NCBI GenBank assembly: GCA_947632545.1
Contig: CANRPP010000001.1
Span: 10,145-74,144 of the forward strand
Direction: 5' to 3'
DNA: 64,000 nt
Source of the DNA: an uncultured Bacilli bacterium
Lineage (GTDB): Bacteria; Bacillota_I; Bacilli_A; RF39; UBA660
The translations under genes and the position numbers were made by a program. The notes beneath the pieces are model-generated. The model was not told the DNA's origin, ran no database searches, and saw nothing but the letters and a program-made list of their open reading frames with translations. How positions within the stretch are numbered: position 1 is the stretch's first letter; every line of letters starts with the position of its first letter. Shown piece after piece: positions 3,447 through 55,229 of the stretch.

Positions 3447-4214
3447 ATGGACCTAAATGCAATTTATGGTGATAAAGAAGCTACAAAGAGAAAACTTGAT
3501 GTATCATTAGAATCGGCTATTGAATTTTATAAACCAGTATTCAAAGAAAATTCAGAAAAAATACTTTTAGATATTATAAATAAAACAGATTTTTGTGAAT
3601 TAAATAGTAAATATATAACAAAAGAATTTATGTACAATTTCATAGATAGACTTGGTTATTTTCCATCATATATGAGAGGATGTTGTCTTCGAATAAAAAA
3701 TAAAAATATAGTGATTACTACTAATAAAGGTGGAAATGAAGATTATCATATTTTTGCTCATGAATTATTTGGTCATAGAGTTTGCCAAGAATTTGAAAGA
3801 TATGTAGAAATAGGCGATAAAGTTTATAATCGAGATGGAGTAAATTTATCGAGTGAAGATGAAGATAAATATAACTTAATAAATGAGGGTTTTATGGAAT
3901 TAATCGCTAGTGACATTATAAGAAATAGTAAAAATAATATAATAGATAAAAAATCATTAGAATATTTAAAGGCCCATTACTGTAGTAGAGTAATAACAAA
4001 ATATTTAGGATATGAAAAAATATTACAAATGTTAGTTTATAATAAATATAATTTAGAGGATGAGTATAACTCTATTAATAAAAATGAATTAAATAAATTA
4101 GAAAAATTATTAAATTTAGAGTTTGTAAAAAGAAATAATAAAACTATTAATAAATATGTAAATAAAAAAATAAGTAAAAATTTAGAAGGATTTCAAAAGA
4201 GAAAAATTAGATAA
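3447..4214 (+). CDS. Hypothetical protein with HELFGH...NEGFME motifs (possible metallopeptidase)
   Basis: 255-aa ORF with an RBS and no signal peptide. It carries an HExxxH string followed about 35 aa later by NEGFME. Confidence 0.4.
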   Translation: MDLNAIYGDKEATKRKLDVSLESAIEFYKPVFKENSEKILLDIINKTDFCELNSKYITKEFMYNFIDRLGYFPSYMRGCCLRIKNKNIVITTNKGGNEDYHIFAHELFGHRVCQEFERYVEIGDKVYNRDGVNLSSEDEDKYNLINEGFMELIASDIIRNSKNNIIDKKSLEYLKAHYCSRVITKYLGYEKILQMLVYNKYNLEDEYNSINKNELNKLEKLLNLEFVKRNNKTINKYVNKKISKNLEGFQKRKIR

Positions 4215-5979: not shown

Positions 5980-6003
5980 ATTAGTATGAAAGGAGAGAAA
6001 ATA

Positions 6004-6864
6004 ATGAAAAAGAAATTTATTTTAGCTGGCTTAATGTTTGCTTTTGGTATGTGTATAATGCCAAATGTACATGCTGATACTGATTATGCAAAAGTTGAAA
6101 TTATAACTGGTACTGGTAGTATATCAAATGATGAACAAGCAAATGTTACAGTTTCAATTAATGATGTTGATTTAAAATGGTCAGAAGCTGATCCAAAAGT
6201 TGGAAGAGATGTTGATGGTTGGTGGATTGGAGTTAAATTTACTGCACCAACAAATGCAAATTTCGATAAGGCACAATTTAAAAGACCAGATAAAAAGTTA
6301 GGAATTGTAACTAAAAAATTTACAGAAGTTGAAGATTCTAAATCAAATGAAAATCCACGTTATTTTGGGGCATGGCTTTCAGTGGATAAAGCAAGATTAG
6401 GCAGTGAAAATCCATTTGTAATTGGTACATATGAATTTGACTGGAATGGTGATGGTACTTATGAACAAAAAGTAACTGTTCAAGTTAATTCTAGTAATGT
6501 AAAGTTTAAAACACCAGAAAATGTAACATCATTTACTGTAAAAGGAGCTAATGGTAGTAGAGTATTTACTATTAAAGATGGTAATAAGTTAAGCAACTTA
6601 AACAATGAAGAAATATCTTTATTAGAACAATTAATTCAAGCTCCAAATGGTAAAAAATTCGTTGGATATAAGAAGAAAGACGGAACAATGTTAAAAGATG
6701 ATGAAGAAATCACAAAAGACGAGATTTTAGAAGCCGTTTACGAAGATGTTATTTCAGAAGAAGCAAATCCAAATACATCAGATATTAACTTATATCTATT
6801 ATTAAGCTTAATTGCAGTAAGTGGCTGTGGAATAGTTTATACAGTAAAAAGAAGATTTAATTAA
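6004..6864 (+). CDS. Secreted cell-surface protein with C-terminal NPNTS-type sorting signal
   Basis: Signal peptide ...MPNVHA/DTDY. The C-terminus is ANPNTSD, then a hydrophobic helix, then KRRFN, which is the sortase-substrate architecture. The start at 6004 sits behind AAGGAGAG. Confidence 0.6.
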   Translation: MKKKFILAGLMFAFGMCIMPNVHADTDYAKVEIITGTGSISNDEQANVTVSINDVDLKWSEADPKVGRDVDGWWIGVKFTAPTNANFDKAQFKRPDKKLGIVTKKFTEVEDSKSNENPRYFGAWLSVDKARLGSENPFVIGTYEFDWNGDGTYEQKVTVQVNSSNVKFKTPENVTSFTVKGANGSRVFTIKDGNKLSNLNNEEISLLEQLIQAPNGKKFVGYKKKDGTMLKDDEEITKDEILEAVYEDVISEEANPNTSDINLYLLLSLIAVSGCGIVYTVKRRFN

Positions 6865-6867
6865 TTA

Positions 6868-6895
6868 AAAGAAACCAACGGGTTTCTTTTTTTTT
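6868..6895 (+). terminator. Rho-independent terminator
   Basis: AAAGAAACC-aacg-GGTTTCTTT followed by a T-run. Confidence 0.8.
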
Positions 6896-7076
6896 GTAAA
6901 GTTATTTTGTAAAGTAATAAGTGTGGTATGTCTAAATTTGTCAAAAAATATTTGGTGATGAATAAATTATATATGAAATATAGAAAATTATTGAAATATT
7001 TGAGATAATATATTAAACTAATACATAAAAAATAATACATTAAAAATTATTTTTATTTAAGAGAGGATGAAGGATT

Positions 7077-10000
7077 ATGCAAAGAAAAATGATGCATTTA
7101 ATATTATTATTTTTGGCAGTTTTTCTAATCCCATTTAGTGTTAATGCTGCTCAAAATGTTACATTAAAAATTGATAAAGATAATTTAGAAATAGGTGATG
7201 AAGTAACAATAAGTGCTAATATATCAAGTAATATAGAAGCTTATGCACTACAAGCTACTTTAAAATATGATGAAAATGTTTTTGAACAAATAGATGATGA
7301 AAGTTTTTCTATTAATAGCACAATGGATATTTCATACAATGAAAATAGCAATAAATTTGGAATAATAAATCAAACAGGTAAAATTACTAATGAATTATTT
7401 AAAGTTCGTCTAAAAGTAAAAGAAAATGCTAATGTAGGAAATACTAATATAGCGCTAACTAATATGTCATATTCAGATGGTGAGAGTATAAAGGATTTAG
7501 ACAAAGTATCAACTAAAGTATTAGTAACAAAAGATGCTGTTGAAGGAGAAGCTATTTCCATTAATAAAGAAAATAAAATTACAGAAGATCAAGAAAATAC
7601 TATTAAAGTTTTTTCAACTAAACCAATTATAATTCTTATTTCAGTTATAATAGTTTTATTACTTATAGGAATTGTATATATGAGTATTAATTATCGTGAT
7701 AAAAAGAAACCTTTATATTGTTTAATTGCAATAGGTATAATCTTACTTATTACTGATATAAGTTTATTTATTACCAATACCACAAAAAAAGATGTTAATT
7801 CTGATGGTAAAAAAGATTATGATGATTCAAAAGAAATTATTGATTATCTTATTAGTATTGATACAAAAAATAGTAAAGATAGTGATAAAGACTTAAATAC
7901 TAAAAAAGCAACAAATAAAATTACACGTAAATATGATATCAATAATGATGGTAGATTTAACATAAGAGATGCTGCAGGTAGTGTAGAAGATATAAATAAT
8001 AAAACTAACGTTAAATTAAAAGAAGTAAAAGCAGAAAATGAATATTATGTAGAAAAAGGTAATATAGATCTTAAATTTACAGCTGAAATTAATCCAAAAG
8101 AAGTTAAAATTACTAAAGTAAAAGTAGATAATAAGTACTATGATGTAAAATCTAATAGTGGGGTTTATATAGTTTTAGTTGATGATTATACTAAAGCCGG
8201 TCCACATGATTTTGTAATTAATGAAGTTAAATTATCAAATGGAGAAGTAAGAAATACTAATCTAAAAATTAAAAAAGAAATCTTAAAAGATAAACCTAAA
8301 GTTAAAAATTTAAGTTATGACATTAAAGAAGGAAATTTAAAATTCTCCATAGATGATAATGATACTGCATTACAAAATGCTGAGTTAACTATTTTTGAAG
8401 GTATAGTTAGTGAAAATGATTTAAGAAAAAGTGAAGAAAATACTGGTATTATTGATGAAGAAGGTAACGAAATAAATTCAGATGATTTTGATGATTATAA
8501 AATTGTTTTAGAAAAAGAATTAAAACATACAGATAAATCTTTTTCAATAAAACCTAATTTGTCACTTGGTGGAGTTTATACAATAGTTATTACTGGTGAA
8601 TATGATTTAGATGTTAATAAGGATAATGATAAAAACGATTATCAAGAACAATTCCTTAATGATGGGTTAGATAATATTACAGTAGGAAAAATTGTAATTG
8701 CACCATTAGAACAAGAAGAAATATTCTTGGAACAAAAAAATACATACGACTATCTTTTTGATGTTACATTTGAACCACAAAGTATTTCTCAAGAAATAAA
8801 ACAAGTTAAAATTGGAGAAATCTATAAAGATATTACTTATGAAGATGGTCATTGTAAATTAAGTCTTGATGATACCTCTACAGCTGGACTTAAAACTGAA
8901 GACATTACTGCGATAGTATTAAATGATGGCACAGAAGTTTTAAGTAAACATGAGGTAAAATATGATGTATTAAAAGCAATTCCTACTATTAGTAATTTTA
9001 TATACAATAAAAAGAAAAATAAAATATCATTTACTTTAAGTGATAAAGATAATGCTTTTAGAGATGTCAACATAAAAATAACTAATAAAGATAATGGTAC
9101 TGAAGTATTTAAAGAAAATTTATTTTTAGATAAAAAAGAATTTGAATTTCAAGTAAAACTTGATGAAGGAAACAAATATGATGTTAATATTGATGGATCT
9201 TATGATCGTGATAGTGATATTAATAATAATAAAAATAACAGCAAAACAAAATTTAACCATGGACTTACTGTATATAATGTCGCATTAAGTAATGTTGAAA
9301 AAGAGAAGTATCATGTAGAAAAAAATAGTGAATTTGAATTAAAATTTAATGCTAATATTACTCCAGTAAATGAAAATGCTACTATAAAAGAAGTAACTAT
9401 AGAAGATCAAGTTTATAATCCTACTAAAGAATCAGATGGTACTTATAGTATCAAACTTAATTCTCCAAATGAGTCAGGAGAGAAAACTTATAAATTAGAA
9501 AATATAATTATTGATGATGAAGAAATTGATGAAACACTAAATGTAAATGTAGATGTATTAAAAGATAAACCAAAAGTAGAAAACCTGCTAATTGATGAAT
9601 CAAAATCAATACCAGAAATATACTTTGATTTAGTAGATGAAGATAATGCACTAGATAATGAATCTAAACCAGGTAAGTTAACTGTTGCAAAAACAGGTGG
9701 TACTTCCAAAGATTTTGACATAAAAAAAGGTACAAATAAAATAAAACTAGAAGACTTCACTGATGAATTTAAAGATGAGGGAGGAATTTTTGATTTAGAT
9801 ATTAAGGCTGATTATAATTTAGATCCTGATAAAAAAGTTAATAAATATCATGAAACAAATAAAGAATTAATAGATAAAAAACAATTTAAAATCTATACAG
9901 CAACTTTAACACCAGGTTCATATAGTGAATATGTGCCTAAAGATAAAGAAATAGAATTTCAAATAAATTCAGCTATTCAACCATATGAGCCTGAAGTTAC

Positions 10001-20532: not shown

Positions 20533-22701
20533 ATGTTTGATAGAATTACGTATATTAGTGATAAATCTGCCGATATTAAATTAAAAGATGGAGAAGAAGT
20601 AGCCATTAACTTAATGAATTTACACTTGATATTTGAAGATAAAGACAAAAAAGTATTAGGTGAAATTGATGATATGGACGGAAATATTGTTAAAGCAAGA
20701 TTTCTAGGTGAAATAGTTAATGGTAGACTAATTGGTGGTGTTATTAGAAAACCATCACTTGATGCATCAATTAGAGTAATAAAACAAGAAGAAATACCTA
20801 TGATTGTAGGAGAAGCTAAAGAAGGATATATGCCATTAGGTGTAAGTCCATTTTATAATGACTTTCCAGTATATTTAAATGTTAATAATTTCTTTAGTAA
20901 TCACTTTGCTATATTAGGAAACAGTGGTGCAGGTAAGAGTTGTGGTGTGTCAAGATTAATTCAAAATATGTTCCAAGACAAACAACTATATCCATATAAA
21001 TCAAATATGTTCTTCTTTGATTCTTCTGCTGAATATTACAATGCCTTTAAGGATTTAAGTTCAATAGATCCAAATTTTAACTATAAATTTATTTCAACTA
21101 ATGAAACAGACGGTATAGGAGAAAAATTAAGAATTCCAATATGGTTATTAAATGTTGATGATTTATGCTTACTACTACAAATAACAAATCATTCTCAAAT
21201 ACCTATAATAGAAAGAATGCTAAAACTAGCCCTTATCTTTGCAGAAAAAGGAGAACAAGCTAATGCATTTAAAAATCATTTAATTGCAAAAGCAGTAATG
21301 GCAATACTATATACAAATGAAACAAGTCCAAATAAAAGAAATGAAATATTTTCAATATTAGATAGTTGTTCAACTCCTGAATTTAATTTGGAAGCACCTG
21401 TACAAGGAATTGGTTATACAAGAAAATTTAGAGAATGTTTTATAATAGATTCACAAGGACAATTTTCAGAAAGTGTTTTATTAACTGAATACGTTTCAAG
21501 TTTTATAAATGAAGAATTTGATAATTATGAACCAAAAGGTGGAGTATTCTATACTTTAGATGATCTAGAAAAAGCCCTTAATTTTACACTTATTAGTGAA
21601 GGGTGGTTAAGAAATGAAAATACATATGGTGATGCAGTAACAATAAGAGTTAGATTACATTCACTAATAGTTGGTGATAATGCTAAATATTTTGATGTTA
21701 AAGATTATGTTACTGTAGAACAACATCTATCATCATTATTAATTAGTAATGGCAAAAAATATCAAATAGTTAATATGAATTTTGATGACGTAGATGATTC
21801 ATTTGCAAAAGTAATTGTAAAAATATACTCAAGATTAATTTTTGAATATTCTAAATCTCTAAAAGATAGAGCGAGTATTCCATTTCACATAATAGTAGAA
21901 GAAGCACACAGATATATTCAAAATGATACTGATAGATTTTTAATTGGCTATAATATATTTGAACGTATTGCTAAAGAAGGTCGTAAATATGGTGTTTTAT
22001 TAGGAATTATAACACAAAGACCAGTAGAATTATCAGATACAGTTATATCTCAATGCTCAAGTTTCTTAATATTTAAAATTAATCACCCAACTGATGTTGA
22101 TTACATAAGAAAAATGGTTCCTAATATTAGTGATGAAATTATAGAAAAACAAAAAACATTACAACCTGGTACTTGTTTGGGATTTGGTATGGCTTTTACA
22201 ATTCCTTTAATAGTTAAATTAAAAATGCCAGATCCAGCACCTTTAAGTGGTAACTGTGATGTTGTAAATATATGGTCTGGAAAGGATAATTCAACAGTTA
22301 ATATAAATAATGCACCAACAAATACAAATGAAATGCAAAAAATGCCGTCAACTATAAATCAACCTACTGAATCAGTATTATTAAATGATGAACCAGTAAA
22401 TAATGAAGTTCTTATAAAAACTGATAATAAAGAAATTAATCAATCACTAGAAGAAGACAAGATAAATGCACCTAATAATGATATGGTAAATACAATAAAC
22501 AATTCAAATTCTAATAAAGACAATGATCCAAATTTTTCTACTCCCATAATGCAAAATACTGAAATATCAGGTATACCTGAAATGGATATAAATAACTCAT
22601 CTCCAAAAATTACATCAATATCAGATAATAACAATATAGGTTCATTAAATATTGATGATGTAATAAATGGGCCTGATGCAGATGATAATCAAGAAGAATA
22701 A
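20533..22701 (+). CDS. HerA/FtsK-superfamily (DUF87-like) ATPase with a long Asn/Pro/Ser-rich C-terminal tail
   Basis: N-terminal HAS-barrel-like region, Walker A ILGNSGAGKSCGVS, Walker B FHIIVEEAHRYI and GIITQRP. The last roughly 150 aa are low complexity. Confidence 0.7.
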   Translation: MFDRITYISDKSADIKLKDGEEVAINLMNLHLIFEDKDKKVLGEIDDMDGNIVKARFLGEIVNGRLIGGVIRKPSLDASIRVIKQEEIPMIVGEAKEGYMPLGVSPFYNDFPVYLNVNNFFSNHFAILGNSGAGKSCGVSRLIQNMFQDKQLYPYKSNMFFFDSSAEYYNAFKDLSSIDPNFNYKFISTNETDGIGEKLRIPIWLLNVDDLCLLLQITNHSQIPIIERMLKLALIFAEKGEQANAFKNHLIAKAVMAILYTNETSPNKRNEIFSILDSCSTPEFNLEAPVQGIGYTRKFRECFIIDSQGQFSESVLLTEYVSSFINEEFDNYEPKGGVFYTLDDLEKALNFTLISEGWLRNENTYGDAVTIRVRLHSLIVGDNAKYFDVKDYVTVEQHLSSLLISNGKKYQIVNMNFDDVDDSFAKVIVKIYSRLIFEYSKSLKDRASIPFHIIVEEAHRYIQNDTDRFLIGYNIFERIAKEGRKYGVLLGIITQRPVELSDTVISQCSSFLIFKINHPTDVDYIRKMVPNISDEIIEKQKTLQPGTCLGFGMAFTIPLIVKLKMPDPAPLSGNCDVVNIWSGKDNSTVNINNAPTNTNEMQKMPSTINQPTESVLLNDEPVNNEVLIKTDNKEINQSLEEDKINAPNNDMVNTINNSNSNKDNDPNFSTPIMQNTEISGIPEMDINNSSPKITSISDNNNIGSLNIDDVINGPDADDNQEE

Positions 22702-45516: not shown

Positions 45517-45583
45517 AAATTTATTGGAAAAATAAAAAAACATGATATAATTATTGTATAAAGGTAAGGTGAATATATATAAA

Positions 45584-46741
45584 ATGAAAAAAAGAAAAAT
45601 AGGAATTCTAGGTATAGCTTTAACTACTGTGTTTTCATGTGCTACTATAAATGTTAATGCTGCAACTACTTATTCTGAAACATTACCAAATGAGGTTACA
45701 AGGAAAAATACTGAACAAGAATATAAATTTAGTGAACCAGGAATAGGCTCTGGAGAAACATTAGGTATAATTGAGTTTTTAAGTAATGATGATAAATATT
45801 TATTATATTGCTCTGATAGAAATAATACTCGTTATACAAGTGAAGTTAAGTTAACAAAGGGAGGACCAATGGACTATAGAATAGCATATATATTAACACA
45901 CGGCTATGGTAGTTCAAATGCAGCTTTAATAAAAGATGTTACGGAAGAAAAAAGTTTGCAAGATAATATTGATCCATATAATAAAGGCCAAGATATGGCT
46001 AATCTTTGGATTACTCAAGTATCTTTATGGAATATTCAAAATACCATATCAGATAAAGATTTAAATAATAAACAATTAGTATATACAAAAACACGAAATA
46101 ATGATATGTTTAAATTATCATTTTCTAATCAAGTATTAACAGCTGGAACATTATGGAATAACTATGTTAATAAGTTGATAAGTGAGGCTAATAGTAAAGA
46201 AGATCCCGCAAATACAACTTTAACATTTTCAGGTGATGCTAAATGGACAAAATCTGACAATATTTCAAAAACAGGTTTAGTTACAATTGCGCCATCAAGT
46301 GATTTAGTAACAATGGCTACTTATACAGTATCACTAGAAAATGCTCCAGAAGGAGCTGAAATTCATAAAGAAGATGGAACTGTAATTTCTAGTACAGATG
46401 AAATTGCTGCAGGTACAAAAATATATATTACTGTTGATAACACAAAACTTGATAATACAAAAGAATATAATTTTACATTAAATGCTAAAACAAATGGTAC
46501 ATATGATGTTGCATATCAATATGTTGATACAACTAATCAATGTGAAGGACAAGCTTGTCAACCTTCTGTATTGGTAGGACCAGGTAGAAATGAATTTAAT
46601 GGCTCATTAAAACTTAATATAATACCAGATACAGCAAGCAATATTTCAAAAACAATATACTATGTTGGATTTATAATTCTATTAATTGGAGCAGGAACAA
46701 TATATGCAAATGTCAGACCAAAAAAACAAGAAACAGAATAA
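45584..46741 (+). CDS. Surface adhesin with thioester-domain (TED) motifs and an IPDTAS sorting signal
   Basis: Signal peptide ...NVNA/ATT. The Cys motif LLYCSD and Gln motif ITQVSLW follow the TED pattern (YC.. and TQxAIW). The C-terminus is IPDTAS, then a TM helix, then RPKKQ. Confidence 0.5.
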   Translation: MKKRKIGILGIALTTVFSCATINVNAATTYSETLPNEVTRKNTEQEYKFSEPGIGSGETLGIIEFLSNDDKYLLYCSDRNNTRYTSEVKLTKGGPMDYRIAYILTHGYGSSNAALIKDVTEEKSLQDNIDPYNKGQDMANLWITQVSLWNIQNTISDKDLNNKQLVYTKTRNNDMFKLSFSNQVLTAGTLWNNYVNKLISEANSKEDPANTTLTFSGDAKWTKSDNISKTGLVTIAPSSDLVTMATYTVSLENAPEGAEIHKEDGTVISSTDEIAAGTKIYITVDNTKLDNTKEYNFTLNAKTNGTYDVAYQYVDTTNQCEGQACQPSVLVGPGRNEFNGSLKLNIIPDTASNISKTIYYVGFIILLIGAGTIYANVRPKKQETE

Positions 46742-47372
46742 AAAAATAAAAAAGAGCCAATTATGCTTATTTGGCTCTTTGCTTGTAATTGTAGGAATAA
46801 CTTTATTATCAATGGATCATATTAAAAATTTAAAAAAACAAGTATTTACTGATATGCAATTATCATTTATGAATCAAGATAATGTTAATGATATTATTCA
46901 GGCTGTACCAAAAATGGAAGAAGTAAAAGAAACTCCAAAAGAAGAAGAAAAGAAAGAATATAAACCAATTGATTATAGTCAATATACAGGTATCATAGAA
47001 ATTCCAAAGATTAGATTAAAAAGAGGATTTTATAATGTAGGACATAGATATAATGATATTAATCATAATGTTACAGTTTTAAGTGATTCTACAATGCCAG
47101 ATGTAGTTAATGGGAACCTTATTCTAGCGGCACATTCTGGAGATGCTTATATATCATATTTTGCCTATTTATATAAACTAGTAGTTGGTGACTTTGTATA
47201 TATAACATATAACGGAATCATTTATAAATATCAAATAGTTAATATATATAATGTTCCAAAAACAGGTTCAGTAACTATAAATAGAAACATGTCGAAAACA
47301 ACACTAACACTTATTACATGTACTAAAAATAGTGCTACTGAACAAACAGTTTATATTGCAGAATTAGTATAA
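46704..47372 (+). CDS. Sortase (transpeptidase)
   Basis: N-terminal TM anchor, catalytic His in LILAAHSG and Cys in TLTLITCT. The start is ambiguous (46686 TTG, 46704 or 46710 ATG). Confidence 0.8.
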   Translation: MQMSDQKNKKQNKKIKKSQLCLFGSLLVIVGITLLSMDHIKNLKKQVFTDMQLSFMNQDNVNDIIQAVPKMEEVKETPKEEEKKEYKPIDYSQYTGIIEIPKIRLKRGFYNVGHRYNDINHNVTVLSDSTMPDVVNGNLILAAHSGDAYISYFAYLYKLVVGDFVYITYNGIIYKYQIVNIYNVPKTGSVTINRNMSKTTLTLITCTKNSATEQTVYIAELV

Positions 47373-48138: not shown

Positions 48139-51100
48139 ATGAAAAAATTTTTAGTCAGTTTAATTTTATTATTTACATTTACTACAGTAAATGCTAATGA
48201 GCTTGAATTAAATCTAAATAAAAAAGAAGCTAGTTTAGGAGAGGAGGTAACAATATCACTTGATTCATATAGTGATGATATTAAATTAAATTATGATAAA
48301 AATGTTTTTTCTGCTATTGATATAGATAATTTTAAAAATAATAAACATATAACATCGAAAGGGAATACATTTTATCTTGATAAAGAAAGCAATTTAAAAA
48401 TAAAATTAAAAGTAAAAAAAGATGCTCCTAGTGGTAAAACAACAATTAAAGTTAGTTATGGAAATAAAAATATATCAAAAGATATTAAAATAGATGGTAA
48501 AGTAATTAAAGAAAAATCAAATTTATGGATTTTATATGGAATCTTAACTATTGCTTTAATAGGAGCTATTATTTATTATTATAATCAAAATAAAAATAAA
48601 ATTGGTAAACAACAAACTATATATATAATAGTTGCTAGTATAGTAGCTATAATACTGTTAATTATGACATTTACTTCACTAAATAATAAAGATAATAAAG
48701 TAGATAAAGATAATTTGATTTATAAAATTAAAGTTAAAGAGAATGAAGAAAAAATAAAAGATAATGAATTAGATGATAATACTGATACTACTATATCAAA
48801 AGAGAAATATTCTAAAAAATCAACTAGTAATAAAAAAGAGAACCAAATAATAGAAGATATTGTATATAGTGTTAAATTAAATAGTTACTCTACAAGTACT
48901 AAAATTACAAAAAAAGGTGACGATATTGTTATAACATTTGATATAGATATTAAACCGTATGCAGATATTAAAGCCGTAGAAATAAATGGTAAGATCTATT
49001 CAGTTCAAAAAGTAGGGGATAAATACCAAACTACAATTAAAGCTTCTAATGTATATGGTGATGGTAATTATACAATAACAAAGGTTGTTTTAAGTAATGG
49101 TAAAACAGTAAATGTAGAAAATAAACATATAACAGTTTATGTTTTAAAGGAAGAACCAAAAATAGAAAATATTGAAGTTAATAGTAAAGAAGTTATACCT
49201 GTTTTAAACTTTGATGTTAAAGATCCCGACAACTCATTTGTAAGTGGTAGTGTAGTTATGACAAAAACAACTAATCCTATATTTAGAACTATTTCATTAT
49301 TTAAAAAATTAACTAATAATATAAGTAAAGAAAATGAGTTATTAAATAGTGAAAATGTTAAAGTAGGTCATAATTCATTTGAAATAAAAGATTTAAAAGA
49401 GGGAATGAGTTATGATTTAAAAATTACTTTAAATTATGATTTAGATGAAGATAAAACAGATAGTACATATTCTGATACAAAAGAAGAAGAAAAAATTAAA
49501 ACATTTGAAAGAGAATATAATTTTGAACTTAAAAATGCAGAGATTACAAGTCCAGTTACTAAAGATCAAGAGTTAAAATTATCATTTGAAAATGGTGCAT
49601 TCTCTTATACTGATATAGAAAAAATTACAATTAATGGTAAAGAATATGAAGTAACAAAAGATGAAGAAACAGGTGTTTATAAAGTTAATGCTGCTATAGA
49701 TAAATGTAGTGAAAAAGGTAAATGCAGTCTTCATATTAGTAGTGTAAAAGTTACTACTGAAAGTAAAGAATCAAAAGAAATTCCATGCGATTATGATATA
49801 GATTATATCTATCTTAAAGATCAGCCAACTATTAATAGTTTTAATGCAACTTATGATCAAAAAAATATAACTGCAACATTTAATCTTACTGATAATGATA
49901 GTGCTATTAGCGAAGGAAGATTAATTATAAATGGACCTGATGGAGAAAAAGAAATTGCATTAACAAAAGAGGATTTAAAAGAAAATACTGTTACTAAAAA
50001 TTTAGATTTAGAATTATCTGGTGAATATACTGTAACATTAGAAATTACTTATACAGGTACTAATGATGATGGTACAAAAAGTATGGAGAGTACATCAAAA
50101 ATAGAAAAAAATATTACTGCTTCTATTACAAATGTAAGTGCTAATCCTAAAATTGTTACAAGAGGTGAAACTGTAGACTTAATATATACAATAAAGGATA
50201 ATACAGAAGAAGATATAACAAATATTACTGTAAATGGAACTAGTTATACTGCAGATAAACAATCAGATGGTACTTACAAGGTAACAGTACCAGTACCTCA
50301 AGAAGGAGAAGATTTAACTAGAGAATTTAAGGCTACTAAAATAAATTATAATGATAAAACAGTAGAATTAGCTGAATCTAAAGATATAACTTTAAATGTA
50401 ATGAAAAATAAACCAGAAATAAATGAATTTATATTAACATCTGCAGGGGGACAAATTAGTGGAACGTTCAAATTTACTGATGAAGAAAATGCCATAGTAG
50501 GTGCTAAATATACAATTGGTAGTACAACTAGAACTCTTACTAAAGAAGAACTAGAAAATAAAAAATTCACTGACTCTGATGTAAAATCAGCTGGAAATTA
50601 TGATGTTACTTTAACTCTTATCTACGATTTAGGTGATGGAAAGAAATTAGAGGATGTAACAAGTAAACAACAAGTAAAAGTTGAGGTAGATGCAACTATT
50701 ACAGAGTCATCTATTAATCCTAAATTTGTTAAAAAAGGTGAAGAAGTAACAATAACCTATACAATAAAAGATAATACACCAAGCACATTATCTAAAATAG
50801 TTATCAATACTGAAGAAGTTACAGATGTAAATCCAATAGGTGAAGACAAATATGAAGTAAAGATAAAAATTGCTGAAAATGAATTTGCTGGAGAAAAAGA
50901 ATTTAAAGCAACAAAACTTATTTATGAAGATGAAGAAGAATTTGAATTAGAAAATACTGTTAAAGCAACTGTTTTAAAAGAAGAACCAACATTTGAAGAA
51001 TTTACTGCTACATATGATGAAGAAGAAGATAACCTTAAAGGAAATATTAATATTACAGATTCTGAAAGTACAATAACTGGTGGTAAACTTACAATTACTG

Positions 51101-53877
51101 GCCCAGGATTTAGTGAACCAAAAGAAATATCAATTTCCAAAGAAGACTTATTAACTGGATCATTTACAAAAAGTTTAGATCTTATAAAAATGGGTAAATA
51201 TAATATTTCTTTAGAAATAACATATAATTTAGGAGAAAAAGATATTACTACAGATCCTATGGAAACTACTATTAGTAAAGCATTGGAAATTACTAGTGTA
51301 GATGTAGAGGCCCCACAATCAGTAATTAAAAATGGAAAAATAGAATTAATATATACAATTAAAGATAATACAGATGAAAAAGTTACTAAAATTAAGATTA
51401 ATAATGAAGAAAAAGAAGTAACATATGATAAAGAAACTGATACTTATAAAGTAGAGTATATTGCTTCTACTACAGTTGGAAAAACTACATATACAACAAC
51501 AGAGGTTATTTATGAAACAAGTGGTACTAAGAAAGTTACAGTTACTCCTAAAGATGTGTATGTTTTAAAAGATAAACCTACTATTGATGGAGATCCTACA
51601 TATACAGATAAAACGGCAACAGTTAATATTACTGATATTGATACTGCAAAGACTTCAGCTAAAATTAAATTTACAAAAGTTGGTACAGAAGAAGAAACTA
51701 AATCAATTGATATTAATGAAGATGGTACTGCCGATATTAGTGAATTATCAAATGGTACATATAATGTTACTATTGAAGTAGGTTATGATTTAGATGGTAC
51801 TGAATCAGATTTACCTGATACTACTGGTAATGTTACTAAAGAATATAGTAATGTTGAAATTATAACTACTTATAATCCACAAGTTAATAATTTGAAATTA
51901 AATAATATTACAGATAAAAAAGTTAAACTAGAATTTGAAAGTAGAAATGATGCTAATGTTAAAGTAACTAGCACCAAGGTAAAAGATGCAGAAGGGAATG
52001 AATATCTAGGAACACTTACTGAATTAAATGGTAAGTATATAGTAGAAATTGATAACGATGGAAAAAGAAAAGAATTAACTATATCAGAACTTACTTTTGA
52101 AACAGGTATTTCAAAGGAGATAACAATAGAAGATAAAGTTTTAATTAATAAAACTGAACCTACTGCACAAGTAACTGTTTCAGAAGATGAATCAAATAAA
52201 GTAACAGCAGATATTACTATTGCAGATGATGATAGTACAATAACTGAAAATACTAAATATGCTGTTCTTAGACAATCTGATGATCCTAAAACAGAAATAG
52301 AAAGAAAGAAAATTACAGATAGTAATACCATTACTTTTGATCAAATTTTAGAAGGTGGAAATAGATATCAGGTTGATGTAATTGCTGATTACAATAGAGT
52401 TGATGGTACTGAACATAAAGGAGAAGTTATTGGATCTTCAGATCATATAACAATAAATGCTAAAGTAGAATTAAAAACTTTTGAATTGCCTAAGTCAGAT
52501 ACTTATCCAACAAATAAATATTTTACATTAATATTTAATTTTGAATCTAATGTTAAATTAGATGGAGATATAAGAAATGTAGTTGTTCATACTGAAGAAT
52601 ATGATAATTCTCTTGAAAATAAGGATCCATATACACAGGTAGGTATAGAAACTAAAGATACTCAAATTGATAAAGTTAAGTGTGATCCATCTATTAAATC
52701 AGAAAATGGTACATATAAAACTTTATGTAGAACAGATTATATAGTACCTGATAAAAGTGGAGTTATTAAACTAAAACCAGTATCATTTACTTATCTTGAT
52801 AAAGATAAAACAACAATAGATACTGAATTAGCAAACGCACAAGAAAAATTAGTAGATATTATTAAATGGGCACCAAAAATCACGTATACAACAATAAATG
52901 ATTGGGCAAATAAAACAGTTAAAATAGAGATTAATGTTGACGATAAAAATAATATGTTACAAAAATTTGATACAGGATCATATTTTAACGCAACATTAGC
53001 GACCAAAACATCAACAAATAAAATTGAAAGTCTAGAAGGTAAACAAATAATAGTATTTGATAACCTAAATGATTTAAAACTAAATACTCCGTATAGAGTT
53101 ATGATTAAAGCTCGTTATGATCAATATCACGGAAATATTGTTATTGATAAATCAGAGAATGAACGTATAGAAGAAATTTCTGTTGCTAGTTATATTCACT
53201 TTATTACAGAATCCAATGACTCTTCACTAAACGATTTGGAATTAGTAACATCTGATGGAAAAGATATTGGAACTGAAAAAAGTTTTAGAATTGGGGATGA
53301 CGTTAGATTAGCGTTTACAATTAATGATGAAGGTAATATCTATCCTGGATTTATTCCTGATAAAATAAAAATAGAAGCTACTAATCAAGTGGGTGATTAC
53401 AAAAAAGAATATAGTGTTACTAAAGAAGGAAATAGATATATTACTACCGAAGCTTTGACAGACTTAAGTGTAGGTGAACATATAATAAAAATAGTTGAAG
53501 TATCAAATAGTTCAAGTAATAAAACAATTAAAGTCACTCATGATAATGTAATTATTGTTAATATTCTTGAAACAGAAGCTAGTAATATTAAATTAAATAG
53601 TAATACATTAACTATAAATAATGAAACAAGTCTTGTTCCTAATAATACAGTAGCAGTTACAACATCTGAAGAACAATCTGAAAAAGATGAAGAAGATAAT
53701 GATTCTAATGATTTAGATAATACTGAAAAAGAATCTACTGAAGATTTAATTACTTCTGAAGAAACACAAAGTAAAGATAAAGAAATACCTACTGAGGAAA
53801 AAATAGAAGAGAATGAAAATATTGATGAAACTATACTAGAAGAAATTAATGATAATATTGACTTCTCAATTGAATAA
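48139..53877 (+). CDS. Giant (1912 aa) surface protein, paralogue of the 7077 gene: cohesin-like domain, TM hairpin, 7 repeat modules, acidic tail; no dockerin or protease
   Basis: Single ORF with signal peptide ...TTVNA/NE. It has the same N-terminal architecture and the same VLK(D/E)(K/E)P module boundaries as the 3086-aa protein. Confidence 0.75.
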   Translation: MKKFLVSLILLFTFTTVNANELELNLNKKEASLGEEVTISLDSYSDDIKLNYDKNVFSAIDIDNFKNNKHITSKGNTFYLDKESNLKIKLKVKKDAPSGKTTIKVSYGNKNISKDIKIDGKVIKEKSNLWILYGILTIALIGAIIYYYNQNKNKIGKQQTIYIIVASIVAIILLIMTFTSLNNKDNKVDKDNLIYKIKVKENEEKIKDNELDDNTDTTISKEKYSKKSTSNKKENQIIEDIVYSVKLNSYSTSTKITKKGDDIVITFDIDIKPYADIKAVEINGKIYSVQKVGDKYQTTIKASNVYGDGNYTITKVVLSNGKTVNVENKHITVYVLKEEPKIENIEVNSKEVIPVLNFDVKDPDNSFVSGSVVMTKTTNPIFRTISLFKKLTNNISKENELLNSENVKVGHNSFEIKDLKEGMSYDLKITLNYDLDEDKTDSTYSDTKEEEKIKTFEREYNFELKNAEITSPVTKDQELKLSFENGAFSYTDIEKITINGKEYEVTKDEETGVYKVNAAIDKCSEKGKCSLHISSVKVTTESKESKEIPCDYDIDYIYLKDQPTINSFNATYDQKNITATFNLTDNDSAISEGRLIINGPDGEKEIALTKEDLKENTVTKNLDLELSGEYTVTLEITYTGTNDDGTKSMESTSKIEKNITASITNVSANPKIVTRGETVDLIYTIKDNTEEDITNITVNGTSYTADKQSDGTYKVTVPVPQEGEDLTREFKATKINYNDKTVELAESKDITLNVMKNKPEINEFILTSAGGQISGTFKFTDEENAIVGAKYTIGSTTRTLTKEELENKKFTDSDVKSAGNYDVTLTLIYDLGDGKKLEDVTSKQQVKVEVDATITESSINPKFVKKGEEVTITYTIKDNTPSTLSKIVINTEEVTDVNPIGEDKYEVKIKIAENEFAGEKEFKATKLIYEDEEEFELENTVKATVLKEEPTFEEFTATYDEEEDNLKGNINITDSESTITGGKLTITGPGFSEPKEISISKEDLLTGSFTKSLDLIKMGKYNISLEITYNLGEKDITTDPMETTISKALEITSVDVEAPQSVIKNGKIELIYTIKDNTDEKVTKIKINNEEKEVTYDKETDTYKVEYIASTTVGKTTYTTTEVIYETSGTKKVTVTPKDVYVLKDKPTIDGDPTYTDKTATVNITDIDTAKTSAKIKFTKVGTEEETKSIDINEDGTADISELSNGTYNVTIEVGYDLDGTESDLPDTTGNVTKEYSNVEIITTYNPQVNNLKLNNITDKKVKLEFESRNDANVKVTSTKVKDAEGNEYLGTLTELNGKYIVEIDNDGKRKELTISELTFETGISKEITIEDKVLINKTEPTAQVTVSEDESNKVTADITIADDDSTITENTKYAVLRQSDDPKTEIERKKITDSNTITFDQILEGGNRYQVDVIADYNRVDGTEHKGEVIGSSDHITINAKVELKTFELPKSDTYPTNKYFTLIFNFESNVKLDGDIRNVVVHTEEYDNSLENKDPYTQVGIETKDTQIDKVKCDPSIKSENGTYKTLCRTDYIVPDKSGVIKLKPVSFTYLDKDKTTIDTELANAQEKLVDIIKWAPKITYTTINDWANKTVKIEINVDDKNNMLQKFDTGSYFNATLATKTSTNKIESLEGKQIIVFDNLNDLKLNTPYRVMIKARYDQYHGNIVIDKSENERIEEISVASYIHFITESNDSSLNDLELVTSDGKDIGTEKSFRIGDDVRLAFTINDEGNIYPGFIPDKIKIEATNQVGDYKKEYSVTKEGNRYITTEALTDLSVGEHIIKIVEVSNSSSNKTIKVTHDNVIIVNILETEASNIKLNSNTLTINNETSLVPNNTVAVTTSEEQSEKDEEDNDSNDLDNTEKESTEDLITSEETQSKDKEIPTEEKIEENENIDETILEEINDNIDFSIE
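48196..48510 (+). other. Cohesin-like domain (short)
   Basis: LELNLNKKEASLGEEVTISLDSYSDDIKLNYDKNVFSAIDIDNF...LKIKLKVKKDAPSGKTTIKVS parallels the N-terminal domain of the 3086-aa protein. Confidence 0.5.
48523..48685 (+). other. Two-helix TM hairpin with a basic loop
   Basis: LWILYGILTIALIGAIIYYY, loop NQNKNKIGKQQ, then TIYIIVASIVAIILLIMTFTSL. Confidence 0.7.
48900..53000 (+). repeat. Seven in-frame modules of about 570-720 nt
   Basis: Boundary motifs occur near 49140 (YVLKEEPKIEN), 49810 (YLKDQPTINS), 50398 (VMKNKPEINE), 50971 (VLKEEPTFEE), 51561 (VLKDKPTIDG), 52140 (INKTEPTAQ) and 52860 (IKWAPKITY). Confidence 0.7.
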
Positions 53878-54281: not shown

Positions 54282-55229
54282 ATGACATTATTAAAAGAAT
54301 ACAAAACTTCAGATGAAATTATTGATATACTTAGCGAGAGAGGAATGATATTTTCAAAACCATTAGTAGCAAAGAAAATATTATGTGAAATAAATTATTT
54401 TTTCTTAAAGGGATATCAAGATCTATTATTAATTCCAGGTAACAATAAGAAATTTAAATCAAATTGTGATTTTGAAGAATTAGTAAATTTATATTTTTTT
54501 GATAAAGAGCTTAAAGCATTACTTCTTGAATATCTATTAGATATAGAACAGAAAATTAAAACAGCTATGTCAATTATTATTTCTTCTAAATATGGTATTA
54601 ATGATAGAATTTACTTAAAAAAAAGAAATTTTGATTTAAATAGTCCATATTTAGATAATGCAATAAGGGCAATAAAAAATCAAAGAAGAGAATATGGAGA
54701 AAAAAATACCGCTGTTAAATATTATAAAAATACTTATGGTTATATACCATTTTATGTATTAACAAAATGTTTAACATTTGGCGCTGTAAAAAAATTATAT
54801 AATGTAATGAAACAAGTAGATCAATCAGAAATTTGTAATAAAATATTATTTAGAAATATAAATAATAAAAGAATTAGTAAAACAAAAATATTTATTGCTC
54901 TTATAGCAGATATAAGAAATATGTGTGCACATGATGAAATTATTTATAACTTTGTTCATGGAAGTATTGATATCGGTGAATTACCTGAACATATAAATTT
55001 TAAATTAAAAAGAACAGAAAATGGTAACCTTATACAAGGAAGAAAGGATTTATTTGCGTTATTATTATGTATGAAATATTTAATGAAAAAAGGAAGCTAT
55101 AATGAATTTATACAAAGATTTGATTCTTTAATAAAAAAAACAGCAAAAAAATCAAAAATATATACAGAAAAAGAACTAGTAGAATATATGAATCTGCCTA
55201 GTGACTATTTAAAGTTAAGACAAATTTAA
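54282..55229 (+). CDS. AbiD/AbiF (Abi_2) family abortive-infection-type HEPN protein
   Basis: 315 aa with a typical Abi_2 N-terminus (...IDILSERGMIF...INYFFLKGY) and the Rx4H HEPN motif in ADIRNMCAHDE. Confidence 0.7.
   Translation: MTLLKEYKTSDEIIDILSERGMIFSKPLVAKKILCEINYFFLKGYQDLLLIPGNNKKFKSNCDFEELVNLYFFDKELKALLLEYLLDIEQKIKTAMSIIISSKYGINDRIYLKKRNFDLNSPYLDNAIRAIKNQRREYGEKNTAVKYYKNTYGYIPFYVLTKCLTFGAVKKLYNVMKQVDQSEICNKILFRNINNKRISKTKIFIALIADIRNMCAHDEIIYNFVHGSIDIGELPEHINFKLKRTENGNLIQGRKDLFALLLCMKYLMKKGSYNEFIQRFDSLIKKTAKKSKIYTEKELVEYMNLPSDYLKLRQI

Follow-up and report, generated by a model that had tools for sequence, protein, structure and literature searches.

Judged from its sequence, the protein encoded at 7077..16337 of the window (the whole 64,000-nucleotide stretch of DNA analysed here) is a zinc metalloprotease of the cell surface and belongs to family M26, together with IgA1 protease, ZmpB, and ZmpC. 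M26 proteases are important mucosal colonisation factors. In this protein, the protease is preceded by a signal peptide, a cohesin, a transmembrane (TM) hairpin, a dockerin, and a stalk of seven modules, and both this architecture and the family identity are held with high confidence. The cohesin-dockerin pair is a classic extracellular assembly device, the 'plug and socket' of cellulosomes. The favoured explanation as a whole, which is probable if only just, is that an M26 protease with host substrates is carried by a cohesin-TM-TM-dockerin (Coh-TM-TM-Doc) anchor whose cohesin and dockerin pair with each other. Every feature in the domain list of the first-pass annotation is present, and its interpretation as a whole is partly supported.

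6867..6890, + strand: terminator-like hairpin closing the upstream gene (1 found, 0.1 expected)
7077..16337, + strand: giant surface M26 metalloprotease, complete ORF, 3086 aa (uninterrupted 3086-codon frame)
7077..7148, + strand: signal peptide, aa 1-24, predicted cleavage VNA/AQ (sequence reading; KD peak, residues 3-28)
7158..7529, + strand: cohesin, aa 28-151 (Pfam, phmmer, AF2, Foldseek)
7530..7616, + strand: flexible acidic/polar tether of ~29 aa from cohesin to TM1 (AF2 pLDDT <50, residues 154-184)
7617..7778, + strand: TM hairpin, with TM1 at aa 181-205, a loop, and TM2 at aa 212-234 (KD peaks, AF2 helices)
7788..8033, + strand: dockerin, aa 238-319 (loop motif, Pfam, family HMM, AF2)
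7791-7826, + strand: dockerin Ca loop 1, DVNSDGKKDYDD, aa 239-250, then helix SKEIIDYLI
7935-7970, + strand: dockerin Ca loop 2, DINNDGRFNIRD, aa 287-298, separated from loop 1 by a 36-aa low-complexity linker
8010..12497, + strand: stalk of seven ~210-aa modules, aa 312-1807 (alignment, HMM, AF2, Foldseek)
12396..13163, + strand: Peptidase_M26_N region, aa 1774-1999, and GLUG, aa 2012-2029 (NGGLVGG...) (Pfam)
13962..16295, + strand: Peptidase_M26_C catalytic region, aa 2296-3073 (Pfam, phmmer)
15150..15224, + strand: zinc site, from HESAH (aa 2692-2696) through E2716 in GGEDYAD (sequence, orthologue alignment)
16348..16406, no strand assigned: two terminator-like hairpins in a 62-bp gap shared with a convergent RNase J gene (2 found, 0.0 expected)
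48139..53877, + strand: paralogue of 1912 aa, with a signal peptide, a cohesin-like domain of reduced length, a TM hairpin, and at least 6 modules of the kind found in the stalk

A Shine-Dalgarno-like sequence, GAGAGGA/GAAGGA, lies immediately 5' of the ORF. Since the upstream gene is closed by a terminator-like hairpin, a separate promoter region (6891-7076) seems to serve the giant gene. No RNA genes came up when the 64-kb window was scanned with Rfam, and an exact-sequence database lookup of the 3086-aa protein returned no record. When the uncut protein was scanned with Pfam, none of its real domains was reported, presumably because of composition correction in a genome of 24% GC; piecewise scans recover them. 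Cohesin, GLUG, and Peptidase_M26_N/C, for which the first-pass annotation had suggested a Pfam check, are all above their cutoffs in the piecewise scan. The practical lesson is that giant proteins of AT-rich genomes can lose every domain in whole-protein profile scans.

The GLUG repeats and HESAH zinc protease read from the sequence are borne out by these scans: Peptidase_M26_N scores 77.9 bits (cutoff 27.7), Peptidase_M26_C 116.1 bits (cutoff 22), and Glug, at aa 2012-2029, 21.4 bits (cutoff 20.5). In phmmer searches, about 1200 residues are colinear with the IgA1 protease structures 6xjb, 7jgj, 6xja, and 7uvk (E 1e-39 to 5e-33). The best of these alignments pairs query residues 42-1234 with residues 4-1201 of 6xjb_A (E 1.3e-39), and the M26_N part of the protein aligns with the N-terminal part of 6xjb_A. 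E2716 lies 20 residues beyond the second His of HESAH, a spacing equal to that of H1851 and E1871 in the G. haemolysans IgA1P (PMC9637739), and the HESAH...E zinc motif is near-invariant in 31 orthologues. The ~1300-aa catalytic unit is complete, with its GLUG-bearing N-domain, HESAH, and E2716, and it stands at the far end of a stalk of about 1500 residues. No G5 domain was found in any Pfam scan of the protein. The NCBIfam exception models ZmpA, ZmpB, and ZmpC give 149, 130, and 104 bits, respectively; these scores are so far under the cutoffs of 3000 that they place the protein in a separate M26 clade. Its candidate substrates would be host mucosal glycoproteins, for example the IgA hinge or mucin-type proteins.

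At the N-terminus, the cleavable signal peptide proposed earlier is recognisable as MQRK, a hydrophobic core, and VNA/AQ, both by sequence reading and by KD hydropathy, and it is conserved in family alignment A3. The domain that follows had been called cohesin-like, and profile and fold agree with this. Pfam PF00963 matches aa 28-148 with 38.4 bits (cutoff 24.1), covering profile positions 1-137 of 139, and phmmer aligns the domain with the C. perfringens NagJ cohesin (2jh2/2o4e/2ozn) at E 3e-5. The AF2 model has a pLDDT of 80-87 over aa 28-151, and by AF2 and Foldseek this segment forms a nine-stranded beta-sandwich matching solved cohesins. Foldseek ranks the cohesins 2w1n, 2vo8, and 2jh2 of C. 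perfringens highest (E ~1e-9), with TMt (TM-score normalised to the target) of 0.48, 0.77, and 0.76, respectively; dozens of cellulosomal cohesins come next, and most of the best 50 listed are cohesins. The CLIPPER domain 9ifr also matched; it is a stalk domain of the isopeptide type whose fold resembles that of cohesins, and it was set aside as irrelevant. The tether between the cohesin and TM1 is poorly conserved in alignment A3. The AF2 model of the N-terminal region was built on 9 sequences, and its dockerin part is of low confidence.

The two TM helices and short basic loop of the first-pass annotation are seen again in KD peaks at 174-208 and 210-236, AF2 helices at 181-205 and 212-234, and a net charge of +3 in the loop, NYRDKKKPLY; a K/R-rich loop is present in all family members. 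Both flanks of the hairpin had been taken to be extracellular. Hydropathy, the positive-inside rule, and the AF2 helices agree on this out-in-out arrangement, in which the signal peptide would direct the cohesin outside, the basic loop would be cytoplasmic, and the dockerin and protease would also lie outside the cell. The hairpin would hold the protein in the cytoplasmic membrane. Direct reading and a motif scan found no LPXTG-like motif in aa 1-240. After TM2, the junction in the protein and its lineage is N-x-x-K-K/DVN, and both are without an AXA-type signal-peptidase motif at the end of TM2.

The dockerin starts 4 residues past TM2. Its Ca loops, DVNSDGKKDYDD and DINNDGRFNIRD, are the sole such loop pair within the 64-kb window, and both fit the F-hand pattern D1, N3, D5, D/N9, D12, positions that are invariant in alignment A2. 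The helix after the first loop (SKEIIDYLI) is typical, and that after the second (AAGSVEDINNK) is atypical; AF2 puts a helix after each loop, with a pLDDT of only 44-72. The interloop linker, 36 aa in this protein, is 12-160 aa long across its subfamily and fixed at 22 in a sister subfamily. By Pfam, the dockerin itself is only at threshold (Dockerin_1, PF00404: 22.2 bits for a 100-aa piece and 23.0 bits for an 85-aa piece, cutoff 22.9), which counts against the favoured explanation. The relatives sustain the earlier call of two dockerin-type Ca loops: 28 of 35 orthologues have Dockerin_1 as their leading Pfam match (best E 3.7e-9), and an HMM from the sister subfamily's canonical dockerins only matches both segments of this protein (E 1.3e-7). 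Precomputed Pfam annotation lists PF00404 for the homologues P0004 and P0006; in the latter, a distant homologue, this independent annotation gives Cohesin, Dockerin_1, and Peptidase_M26_N in that order. Compared with the PDB, the family profile matches eukaryotic EF-hand proteins (E 8e-5) a little better than it does solved dockerins (E 3e-3), with the NagH dockerin (2jnk/2ozn) among its matches.

Between dockerin and protease, a module HMM gives exactly 7 matches. The modules are anchored at aa 402, 631, 827, 1037, 1245, 1472, and 1688, share 19-33% pairwise identity, and each consist of a tandem Ig/FN3-like beta-sandwich pair joined at a VLKDKP hinge. For module 4, the AF2 model has a pLDDT of 86.4 and a pTM of 0.74, and Foldseek matches it with tandem FN3/Ig ectodomains, titin, and SiiE. 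No Pfam model for the module was found in whole-protein or piecewise scans. The modules are present in at least 619 database representatives, with copy numbers from 1 to about 23 between paralogue classes, and m1-m7 show positional orthology with four orthologues. Of the earlier description as seven novel ~210-aa modules, the number stands and the word 'novel' needs correction; the modules are not exotic.

Public databases name these proteins nothing beyond 'hypothetical protein', and no prior description of the arrangement was found in the literature on cohesin or dockerin with IgA protease or M26. A protein search with the N-terminus alone yielded 3 fragments, and one with the alignment yielded 7; the sample accessions of the metagenomic fragments gave no indication of an environment. 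Among 44 related genomic loci, nearly all from rabbit-gut ("Lapin") MAGs, some of which have two paralogues, the order signal peptide-Coh-TM-TM-Doc occurs in 36, a finding that counts for the favoured explanation; 30 complete ORFs combine this cassette with HExxH 2000-2700 residues downstream. The Coh-TM-TM-Doc cassette is kept as a unit in about 100 gut-metagenome proteins, and the TM2-dockerin junction is seen in 115 sequences in total. The best 150 module-bearing database proteins include 27 classed as cohesin, dockerin, and M26 and 27 classed as cohesin and M26. The reading of the latter 27 as dockerin-less, made with a lineage-specific HMM, was refuted, as all 20 of those inspected (~2100-3400 aa) have a canonical or near-canonical two-segment dockerin right after TM2. 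No conserved synteny or partner genes were found: no flanking gene is common to more than 5 of the 44 loci, which indicates that the cassette is a self-contained unit. Conservation is lowest in the cassette (46-48% identity; stalk 56-59%, protease 63-66%), and this counts against the favoured explanation.

The first-pass annotation foresaw neither this self-contained character nor the sister subfamily, which has a textbook dockerin with 22-residue spacing and, where TM2 ends, a signal-peptidase-like motif. AXA-like motifs occur there in 34 of 40 canonical-dockerin members. In the subfamily of the window protease, matches to this motif (19 of 75) are scattered and background-like, and the junction N-x-x-K-[KR]-D is conserved.

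The window holds two single-cohesin proteins and one dockerin, and no scaffoldin with several cohesins was found in it; the single dockerin counts for the favoured explanation. The second cohesin belongs to the 48139 paralogue, which ends in an orphan 480-aa C-terminus and from which dockerin and protease are both absent. As claimed earlier, it keeps a cohesin, clearly homologous to that of the protease (BLASTP E 3e-12), and lacks a dockerin, but the cohesin is shortened to ~105 aa, divergent, and under the Pfam cutoff at 17.3 bits. That the dockerin of the protease pairs with it, as had been suggested, is possible, with nothing specific in favour. The paralogue belongs to a cohesin-only class with L037, L038, and L040. 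Neither the window nor the regions flanking loci L001-L043 yielded a further dockerin. At locus L044, a cohesin of the same clade is carried by a sortase-anchored receptor, 185 bp from a dockerin-bearing NPCBM/F5-8C protein, which also counts for the favoured explanation.

In that explanation, the cohesin would bind the dockerin at the stalk base in a Ca-dependent manner, within the same molecule or on a neighbouring copy, and the stalk base would be clamped to a membrane-tethered receptor. Anchor and cargo would come from one gene, in a 1:1 ratio, with no sortase needed. In the sister subfamily, the signal-peptidase-like site suggests a mechanism in which anchor and cargo are separated by cleavage: cleavage at the AXA-type motif would free the dockerin-stalk-protease, and only the cohesin stub would retain it on the cell. 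Because the window protease has no signal-peptidase motif after TM2, this cleaved-anchor version is not directly transferable to it. In its lineage, the chain is probably intact, and the cohesin-dockerin pair would serve as an intramolecular clasp or a lateral head-to-tail link. The putative self-pairing is itself finely balanced. The nearest solved cohesins, those of C. perfringens, bind dockerins and are non-cellulosomal, which speaks for it; a clasp in cis brings no obvious mechanical gain beyond the hairpin alone, which speaks against it. The head-to-tail assembly of the first-pass annotation would be only one of several geometries. Its broader idea, that a protease is displayed by a cohesin-dockerin arrangement of non-cellulosomal type, seems reasonable and is strengthened because the cassette is conserved in about 100 proteins.

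Cellulosomal proteins with both module types normally use different partners, and the two modules might likewise face outward, with the cohesin taking the dockerins of other enzymes and the dockerin plugging into another cohesin, that of 48139 or of a cell-wall scaffoldin. The result would be a small protease-containing complex like the 'mucinolysome' or the C. perfringens toxin complexes. The cohesin-only paralogues and the two-gene cohesin/dockerin pair at L044 fit such an open network, as do the dockerin-bearing peptidases of Limousia mucinolysomes (PMC12997984). However, cohesin and dockerin occur strictly one-to-one in about 100 proteins, always flanking the same hairpin; other dockerins are absent from the window and the L001-L043 flanks, conserved neighbours are absent among the 44 loci, and the 48139 cohesin is truncated and sub-threshold. 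This reading is doubtful. A further alternative, rather unlikely, extends cleavage between TM2 and dockerin to the whole family, by signal peptidase or by another protease at N-x-x-K-K/D, such that the mature protease would be held non-covalently by a Coh-TM-TM stub and could be shed at low Ca. A cut after the second TM segment has been proposed for streptococcal Zmps (PMC3518915; PMC9637739), and both the AXA-like motifs of the sister subfamily and the conservation of N-x-x-K-[KR]-D itself are in keeping with this idea, yet, where TM2 ends, a small residue at -1/-3 is missing from the window protease and from the majority of its subfamily.

It is also conceivable, though quite improbable, that no pairing takes place, the Ca loops being a structural or regulatory EF-hand-like module and the cohesin-like domain an Ig-like cap or adhesin. 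The top PDB matches of the family profile are EF-hand proteins, EF-hand_1 is matched by 6 of 35 members (a few match other EF-hand models), the helix after the second loop is of unusual form, linker length ranges from 12 to 160 aa, and the first loop is degenerate in two members, L021 and L024. Against this, Dockerin_1 is the leading family in 28 of the 35, the textbook dockerins of the sister subfamily yield the HMM that recognises this one, and the partner is a genuine cohesin, with dockerin-binding domains as its closest relatives. Rabbits have 14-15 IgA subclasses with divergent hinges, and an unlikely joint reading couples a self-docking, one-gene anchor to an expansion of this M26 clade among rabbit-gut bacteria in an arms race with these subclasses. 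In its first part, the two halves of the cassette, made as a single chain, would insert as a hairpin and then join non-covalently, with TM2 cleavage in part of the family; its second part rests on relatives that come nearly all from "Lapin" MAGs, some with two paralogues.

The likeness to streptococcal M26 proteases, pointed out in the first-pass annotation, agrees with the published layout of streptococcal Zmps: signal peptide, LPXTG, two TM segments, repeats, and a catalytic region of ~1200 aa (PMC3518915). The window protease shares the succession of signal peptide, N-terminal localisation element, two TMs, repeat or stalk region, and protease, and it shares with the streptococcal/Gemella enzymes (ZmpA-ZmpD) the same ~1200-1300-aa catalytic unit, with HExxH followed 20 residues on by a Glu. 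In its family the active-site sequence is HE[ST]AH, in theirs HEMTH. Strict Gram-positive metallo-IgA1 proteases have an N-terminal LPXTG and a G5 domain upstream of the M26 region (PMC9637739); unlike streptococcal Zmps, the window protease has neither, and it carries a cohesin at the LPXTG position and a dockerin after TM2. Its spacer consists of seven double-Ig modules, each distinct, in a stable array, whereas that of the streptococcal Zmps is a hypervariable repeat tract. A parallel to the AXA motif of the sister subfamily is the 'second signal peptidase site' that has been put forward for streptococcal Zmps (PMC3518915).

By sequence and fold, the closest cohesins are those of C. perfringens NagJ and NanJ, also single, non-cellulosomal, and on host-targeting enzymes. 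There, the modules (NagJ and NanJ cohesins; the NagH FIVAR-dockerin, 2ozn) sit on different secreted enzymes and link them, whereas here cohesin and dockerin flank a membrane hairpin on one polypeptide with M26 cargo. Anchoring scaffoldins of cellulosomes and the Limousia 'mucinolysome' (PMC12997984) keep dockerin-bearing hydrolases at the surface through a cell-bound cohesin, as would be the case here, and L044 represents the classical two-gene form of such anchoring with a related cohesin. Those systems rely on scaffoldins with multiple cohesins, on numerous dockerin enzymes, and on anchoring by sortase or SLH; the window protease, in contrast, has one cohesin and one dockerin on a single protein with a membrane-hairpin anchor. 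As in fibrillar adhesins (Ig-like, BIg, FN3 repeats; SiiE), a long beta-sandwich array projects a head off the cell, but the head is a protease, and the module is an invariable pair of domains that forms a sequence family of its own.

Together, these proteins form a large clade that had no name before, and its members are candidate proteases of host glycoproteins or IgA in herbivore gut bacteria. With cohesin and dockerin placed around a membrane hairpin in about 100 proteins that carry no annotation, cohesin-dockerin biology would extend to single-enzyme self-anchoring, and the family offers a natural comparison for the LPXTG-TM-TM anchoring and release of streptococcal Zmps. If true, self-docking would clarify the N-terminal anchor of streptococcal IgA1 proteases, and it would provide a sortase-independent means for the display, and possibly the shedding, of giant enzymes.

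A Pfam hmmscan of the whole 3086-aa protein returned none of its six real Pfam domains. When the same regions were scanned in pieces, scores of 21-116 bits were obtained, and every domain named in the first-pass annotation was recovered. As an example from a 24% GC genome, this protein suggests that giant proteins of AT-rich genomes may be systematically under-annotated.

Pfam domains of the main protein, scanned piecewise
Cohesin, aa 28-148, 38.4 bits (cutoff 24.1)
Dockerin_1, aa ~238-300, 22.2 bits (cutoff 22.9)
Peptidase_M26_N, aa 1774-1999, 77.9 bits (cutoff 27.7)
Glug, aa 2012-2029, 21.4 bits (cutoff 20.5)
Peptidase_M26_C, aa 2296-3073, 116.1 bits (cutoff 22)

Hydropathy reveals a signal peptide and two adjacent TM segments, and a module HMM finds exactly seven matches, completing the domain list originally read for 7077-16337. 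The C-terminal 1336 aa are colinear with the solved IgA1 proteases of S. pneumoniae and G. haemolysans (E 1e-39 to 5e-33). The motif HE[ST]AH...GGEDYAD is near-invariant across 31 orthologues, and E2716 lies 20 residues past H2696, a spacing equal to that of H1851/E1871 in the Gemella IgA1 protease (PMC9637739). By all sequence criteria tested, the protein is a member of M26; the Pfam Glug, M26_N and M26_C matches, the colinear alignment and the conserved zinc motif all agree with the GLUG/M26 zinc protease first proposed. The stretch aa 1759-3077 also matches the NCBIfam ZmpA/B/C models (E 1e-44 to 3e-30), with scores far under their 3000-bit cutoffs. Unlike strict-sense Gram-positive IgA1 proteases, the protein has no LPXTG, no G5 and no ZmpA/B/C orthology.

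The seven stalk modules have VLKDKP hinges at aa 402, 631, 827, 1037, 1245, 1472 and 1688 and a pairwise identity of 19-33%. Their number (at about 210 aa each) was read correctly from the outset, and their sequence family has no Pfam model; their novelty does not extend to the fold. An AF2 model of module 4, from an alignment of window sequences only, contains two beta-sandwich halves (pLDDT 86.4, pTM 0.74), which Foldseek matches to tandem FN3/Ig pairs (EpoR, IL-7R, CD4, titin, SiiE; identity about 10%, TM 0.3-0.4). The predicted fold is thus a generic stalk fold. A module profile search among 1.84 billion representatives found 619 proteins at E<=1e-3. Across the family, the stalk differs in length by more than 20-fold, from 0-1 module (database protein P0006 and locus L039) to about 23 in the largest relatives, which reach 6693 aa; P0008 (6693 aa), P0009 (6181 aa) and P0013 (5721 aa) share the same Coh-TM-TM-(Doc)-stalk-M26 plan. 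Module order is conserved by position, with m1-m7 of the window corresponding to m1-m7 of the orthologues (identity 38-72%). In a four-module class, window m1-m4 have the single counterpart m1, and window m5-m7 are matched by m2-m4.

Among solved sequences, the cohesin is closest to that of C. perfringens NagJ, which is non-cellulosomal (2jh2/2o4e/2ozn, E 3e-5). In an AF2 model, aa 28-151 have pLDDT 80-87, and the top three Foldseek matches are C. perfringens 2w1n, 2vo8 and 2jh2 (E ~1e-9), with dozens of cellulosomal cohesins ranked below them. AF2 places the hairpin helices at aa 181-205 and 212-234. The loop between them, NYRDKKKPLY, has a net charge of +3, and the equivalent loop carries 3-6 K/R in all relatives. 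Given the cleavable signal peptide and this basic loop, the cohesin is predicted to lie outside, the loop inside, and the dockerin and everything downstream outside. This out-in-out topology, proposed in the first-pass annotation, also fits the hydropathy and the AF2 helices.

The Ca loops DVNSDGKKDYDD and DINNDGRFNIRD are the sole such pair in the 64-kb window. For Dockerin_1 (cutoff 22.9), the trimmed dockerin segment scores 23.0 bits, and 28 of 35 orthologues match the model (best E 3.7e-9). The first segment reads DVNxDGxKDYxDAxEIIxYLI, a textbook F-hand; the second has an atypical helix, and the linker between them is long and varies in length. A profile search of the PDB returned both EF-hand proteins (best E 8e-5) and dockerins, among them NagH of C. 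perfringens (2jnk/2ozn, E 3e-3), and thus sequence alone is not decisive. At family level, the assignment is settled by a sister subfamily with canonical dockerins, such as that of the database protein P0069 (GDLNGDGKVDYADVHLLQKHLI...ADLNYNGRLTVTDLALLIQAVE). An HMM built only from these dockerins matches the window segment at E 1.3e-7 and aligns its two F-hands to the two loops, indicating that the window's dockerin is a derived form with an expanded linker; the two dockerin-type loops of the initial reading are upheld. In two orthologues, the first loop is degenerate (L021 at aa ~239, DVNSDNEVDYND; L024 at aa ~234, DIDKDKNKDYSD) and the following helix and second loop are kept, which may mean a lower Ca dependence.

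Streptococcal Zmps are described as consisting of a signal peptide, an LPXTG, two TM segments, variable repeats, and a catalytic region of ~1200 aa (PMC3518915), in line with the signal peptide, LPXTG and two hydrophobic segments named in the first-pass annotation. Signal peptidase has been proposed to cleave their second TM segment as it would a further signal peptide (PMC3518915, PMC9637739). The window's family has the same layout, but a cohesin replaces the LPXTG and a dockerin follows directly past TM2. A [AVSTGILC]-x-A motif (typically VYA, IYA or AYA) lies at the TM2 end, 4-10 residues before the dockerin, in 34 of the 40 members of the canonical-dockerin subfamily. Only 19 of 75 proteins in the window's subfamily have it, scattered in position, and it is absent from the TM2 end of the window protein. 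The Zmp-like layout and the distribution of this motif lead us to propose that the cohesin serves as a membrane-tethered receptor for the dockerin at the stalk base. In the sister subfamily, the chain would probably be cut, and the dockerin-stalk-protease would then stay attached through non-covalent binding to the cohesin stub. The chain of the window's lineage is probably intact, and there the pair would form a cis clasp or a lateral link between neighbours.

A rabbit-gut Clostridia MAG (L044:5107-10768) contains a two-gene cohesin/dockerin pair, 185 bp apart. The first gene encodes a secreted 1543-aa protein that combines NPCBM and F5/8-type-C and carries a canonical dockerin (61 bits) at its C-terminus; the second encodes 281 aa comprising a signal peptide, a cohesin of the window's clade (Pfam 40.5 bits), a G/S/N linker and LPATG. 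This is the classical two-gene form of surface anchor and client, and provides supporting context for the receptor proposal. In the C. perfringens toxin complexes, whose cohesins are closest to that of the main protein, cohesin and dockerin are on different enzymes. Gut "mucinolysomes" include dockerin-bearing peptidases and an anchoring scaffoldin with a sortase motif (PMC12997984); the paper makes no reference to M26, IgA or transmembrane segments. Full-text literature searches found no account of a TM hairpin placed between a cohesin and a dockerin, nor a description of an M26 enzyme with either domain.

The paralogue at 48139..53877 (+) has a signal peptide and TM hairpin (hydropathy) and at least 6 of the same modules (module HMM). 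Both BLASTP (E 3e-12) and the family HMM (E 8e-14 with the domain scored alone) show that its N-terminal domain is homologous to the cohesin; the protein has no dockerin and no protease. The first-pass claim that it keeps the cohesin and lacks the dockerin holds in these respects, but the domain is about 25 residues shorter and, at 17.3 bits, under the Pfam cutoff. A pairing of this domain with the main protein's dockerin is a speculative possibility. The C-terminal ~480 aa (aa 1430-1912; 52426-53877), which match no Pfam family or solved structure and end in a highly acidic tail, may be a functional head. Similar cohesin-only proteins (L037, L038, L040) have 8-16 modules.

The main gene is an intact frame of 3086 codons in a window of 24.4% GC, with a Shine-Dalgarno-like GAGAGGA/GAAGGA directly 5'. 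It looks monocistronic, given the flanking hairpins:

6867-6890, terminator-like hairpin at the end of the preceding gene
62-bp gap before the convergent RNase J gene, two further hairpins

Its neighbours (pgsA, recA, Mur ligase, RNase Y, RNase J, ftsY) are a housekeeping set of a Firmicute-type chromosome. Three ORFs of 228-292 aa around it (5986-6864, 3447-4214, 18276-18962) have no Pfam match and were not found again beside homologues at other loci. An Abi_2 (abortive-infection-like) gene just 3' of the paralogue (54282-55229) and a HerA/DUF87 ATPase gene (20533-22701) may represent defence or mobile-element content. A gene for a sortase (46686-47372, Pfam Sortase 61 bits) overlaps the 3' end of a gene for a 395-aa secreted protein (45554-46741), whose C-terminus, with IPDTA, a hydrophobic segment and a basic tail, looks like that of a sortase substrate. 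Thus, the organism has sortase anchoring, which its M26 protease does not use.

With the N-terminal 330 aa as query, only 3 fragments were found among 5.8 billion proteins, and 7 with a profile. Among the 7, P0004 has precomputed Pfam Cohesin and Dockerin_1; P0006, from a higher-GC organism, adds Peptidase_M26_N and has a fully canonical dockerin and no stalk. In the metagenomic fragments P0002 and P0003, the last 30-40 residues are compositionally foreign and Gly/Arg/Pro-rich (e.g. RRSALCGNGHPNGADGW...), probably where the frame reads on into adapter or chimeric sequence at the ends of contigs. Among the best 150 module-bearing database proteins, 27 were classified as Coh+Doc+M26 and 27 as Coh+M26. 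Absence of a dockerin in the latter was rejected for the 20 inspected, which have canonical or near-canonical dockerins directly past TM2, missed by the HMM specific to the window's lineage. Public sources name the relatives nothing beyond "hypothetical protein."

A scan of species-representative genomes with a lineage-specific pattern gave 44 loci, a set without the window's own genome (best match, 54% identity). SP-cohesin-TM-TM-dockerin is present in 36 of them, the first Ca loop lying 3-5 residues past TM2, and in 30 complete ORFs an HExxH follows at about aa 2020-2710. By size, the proteins fall into a class of about 2450 aa, which has four modules, and one of about 3080 aa, which has seven; some MAGs contain both. 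No flanking family is common to more than 5 of the 44 loci. Nearly all come from MAGs that are named "Lapin" and carry the label uncultured Bacilli or Clostridia. As the French word for rabbit, the name suggests a rabbit-gut origin, so that the M26 clade appears concentrated in rabbit-gut MAGs. This host restriction may be only apparent, as both sampling and the use of a lineage-specific pattern could produce it. Rabbit IgA comprises 14-15 subclasses whose hinges diverge (PMC6082545, PMC10435986), and, as an attractive speculation, an IgA-hinge arms race could lie behind this M26 clade in rabbit-gut bacteria.
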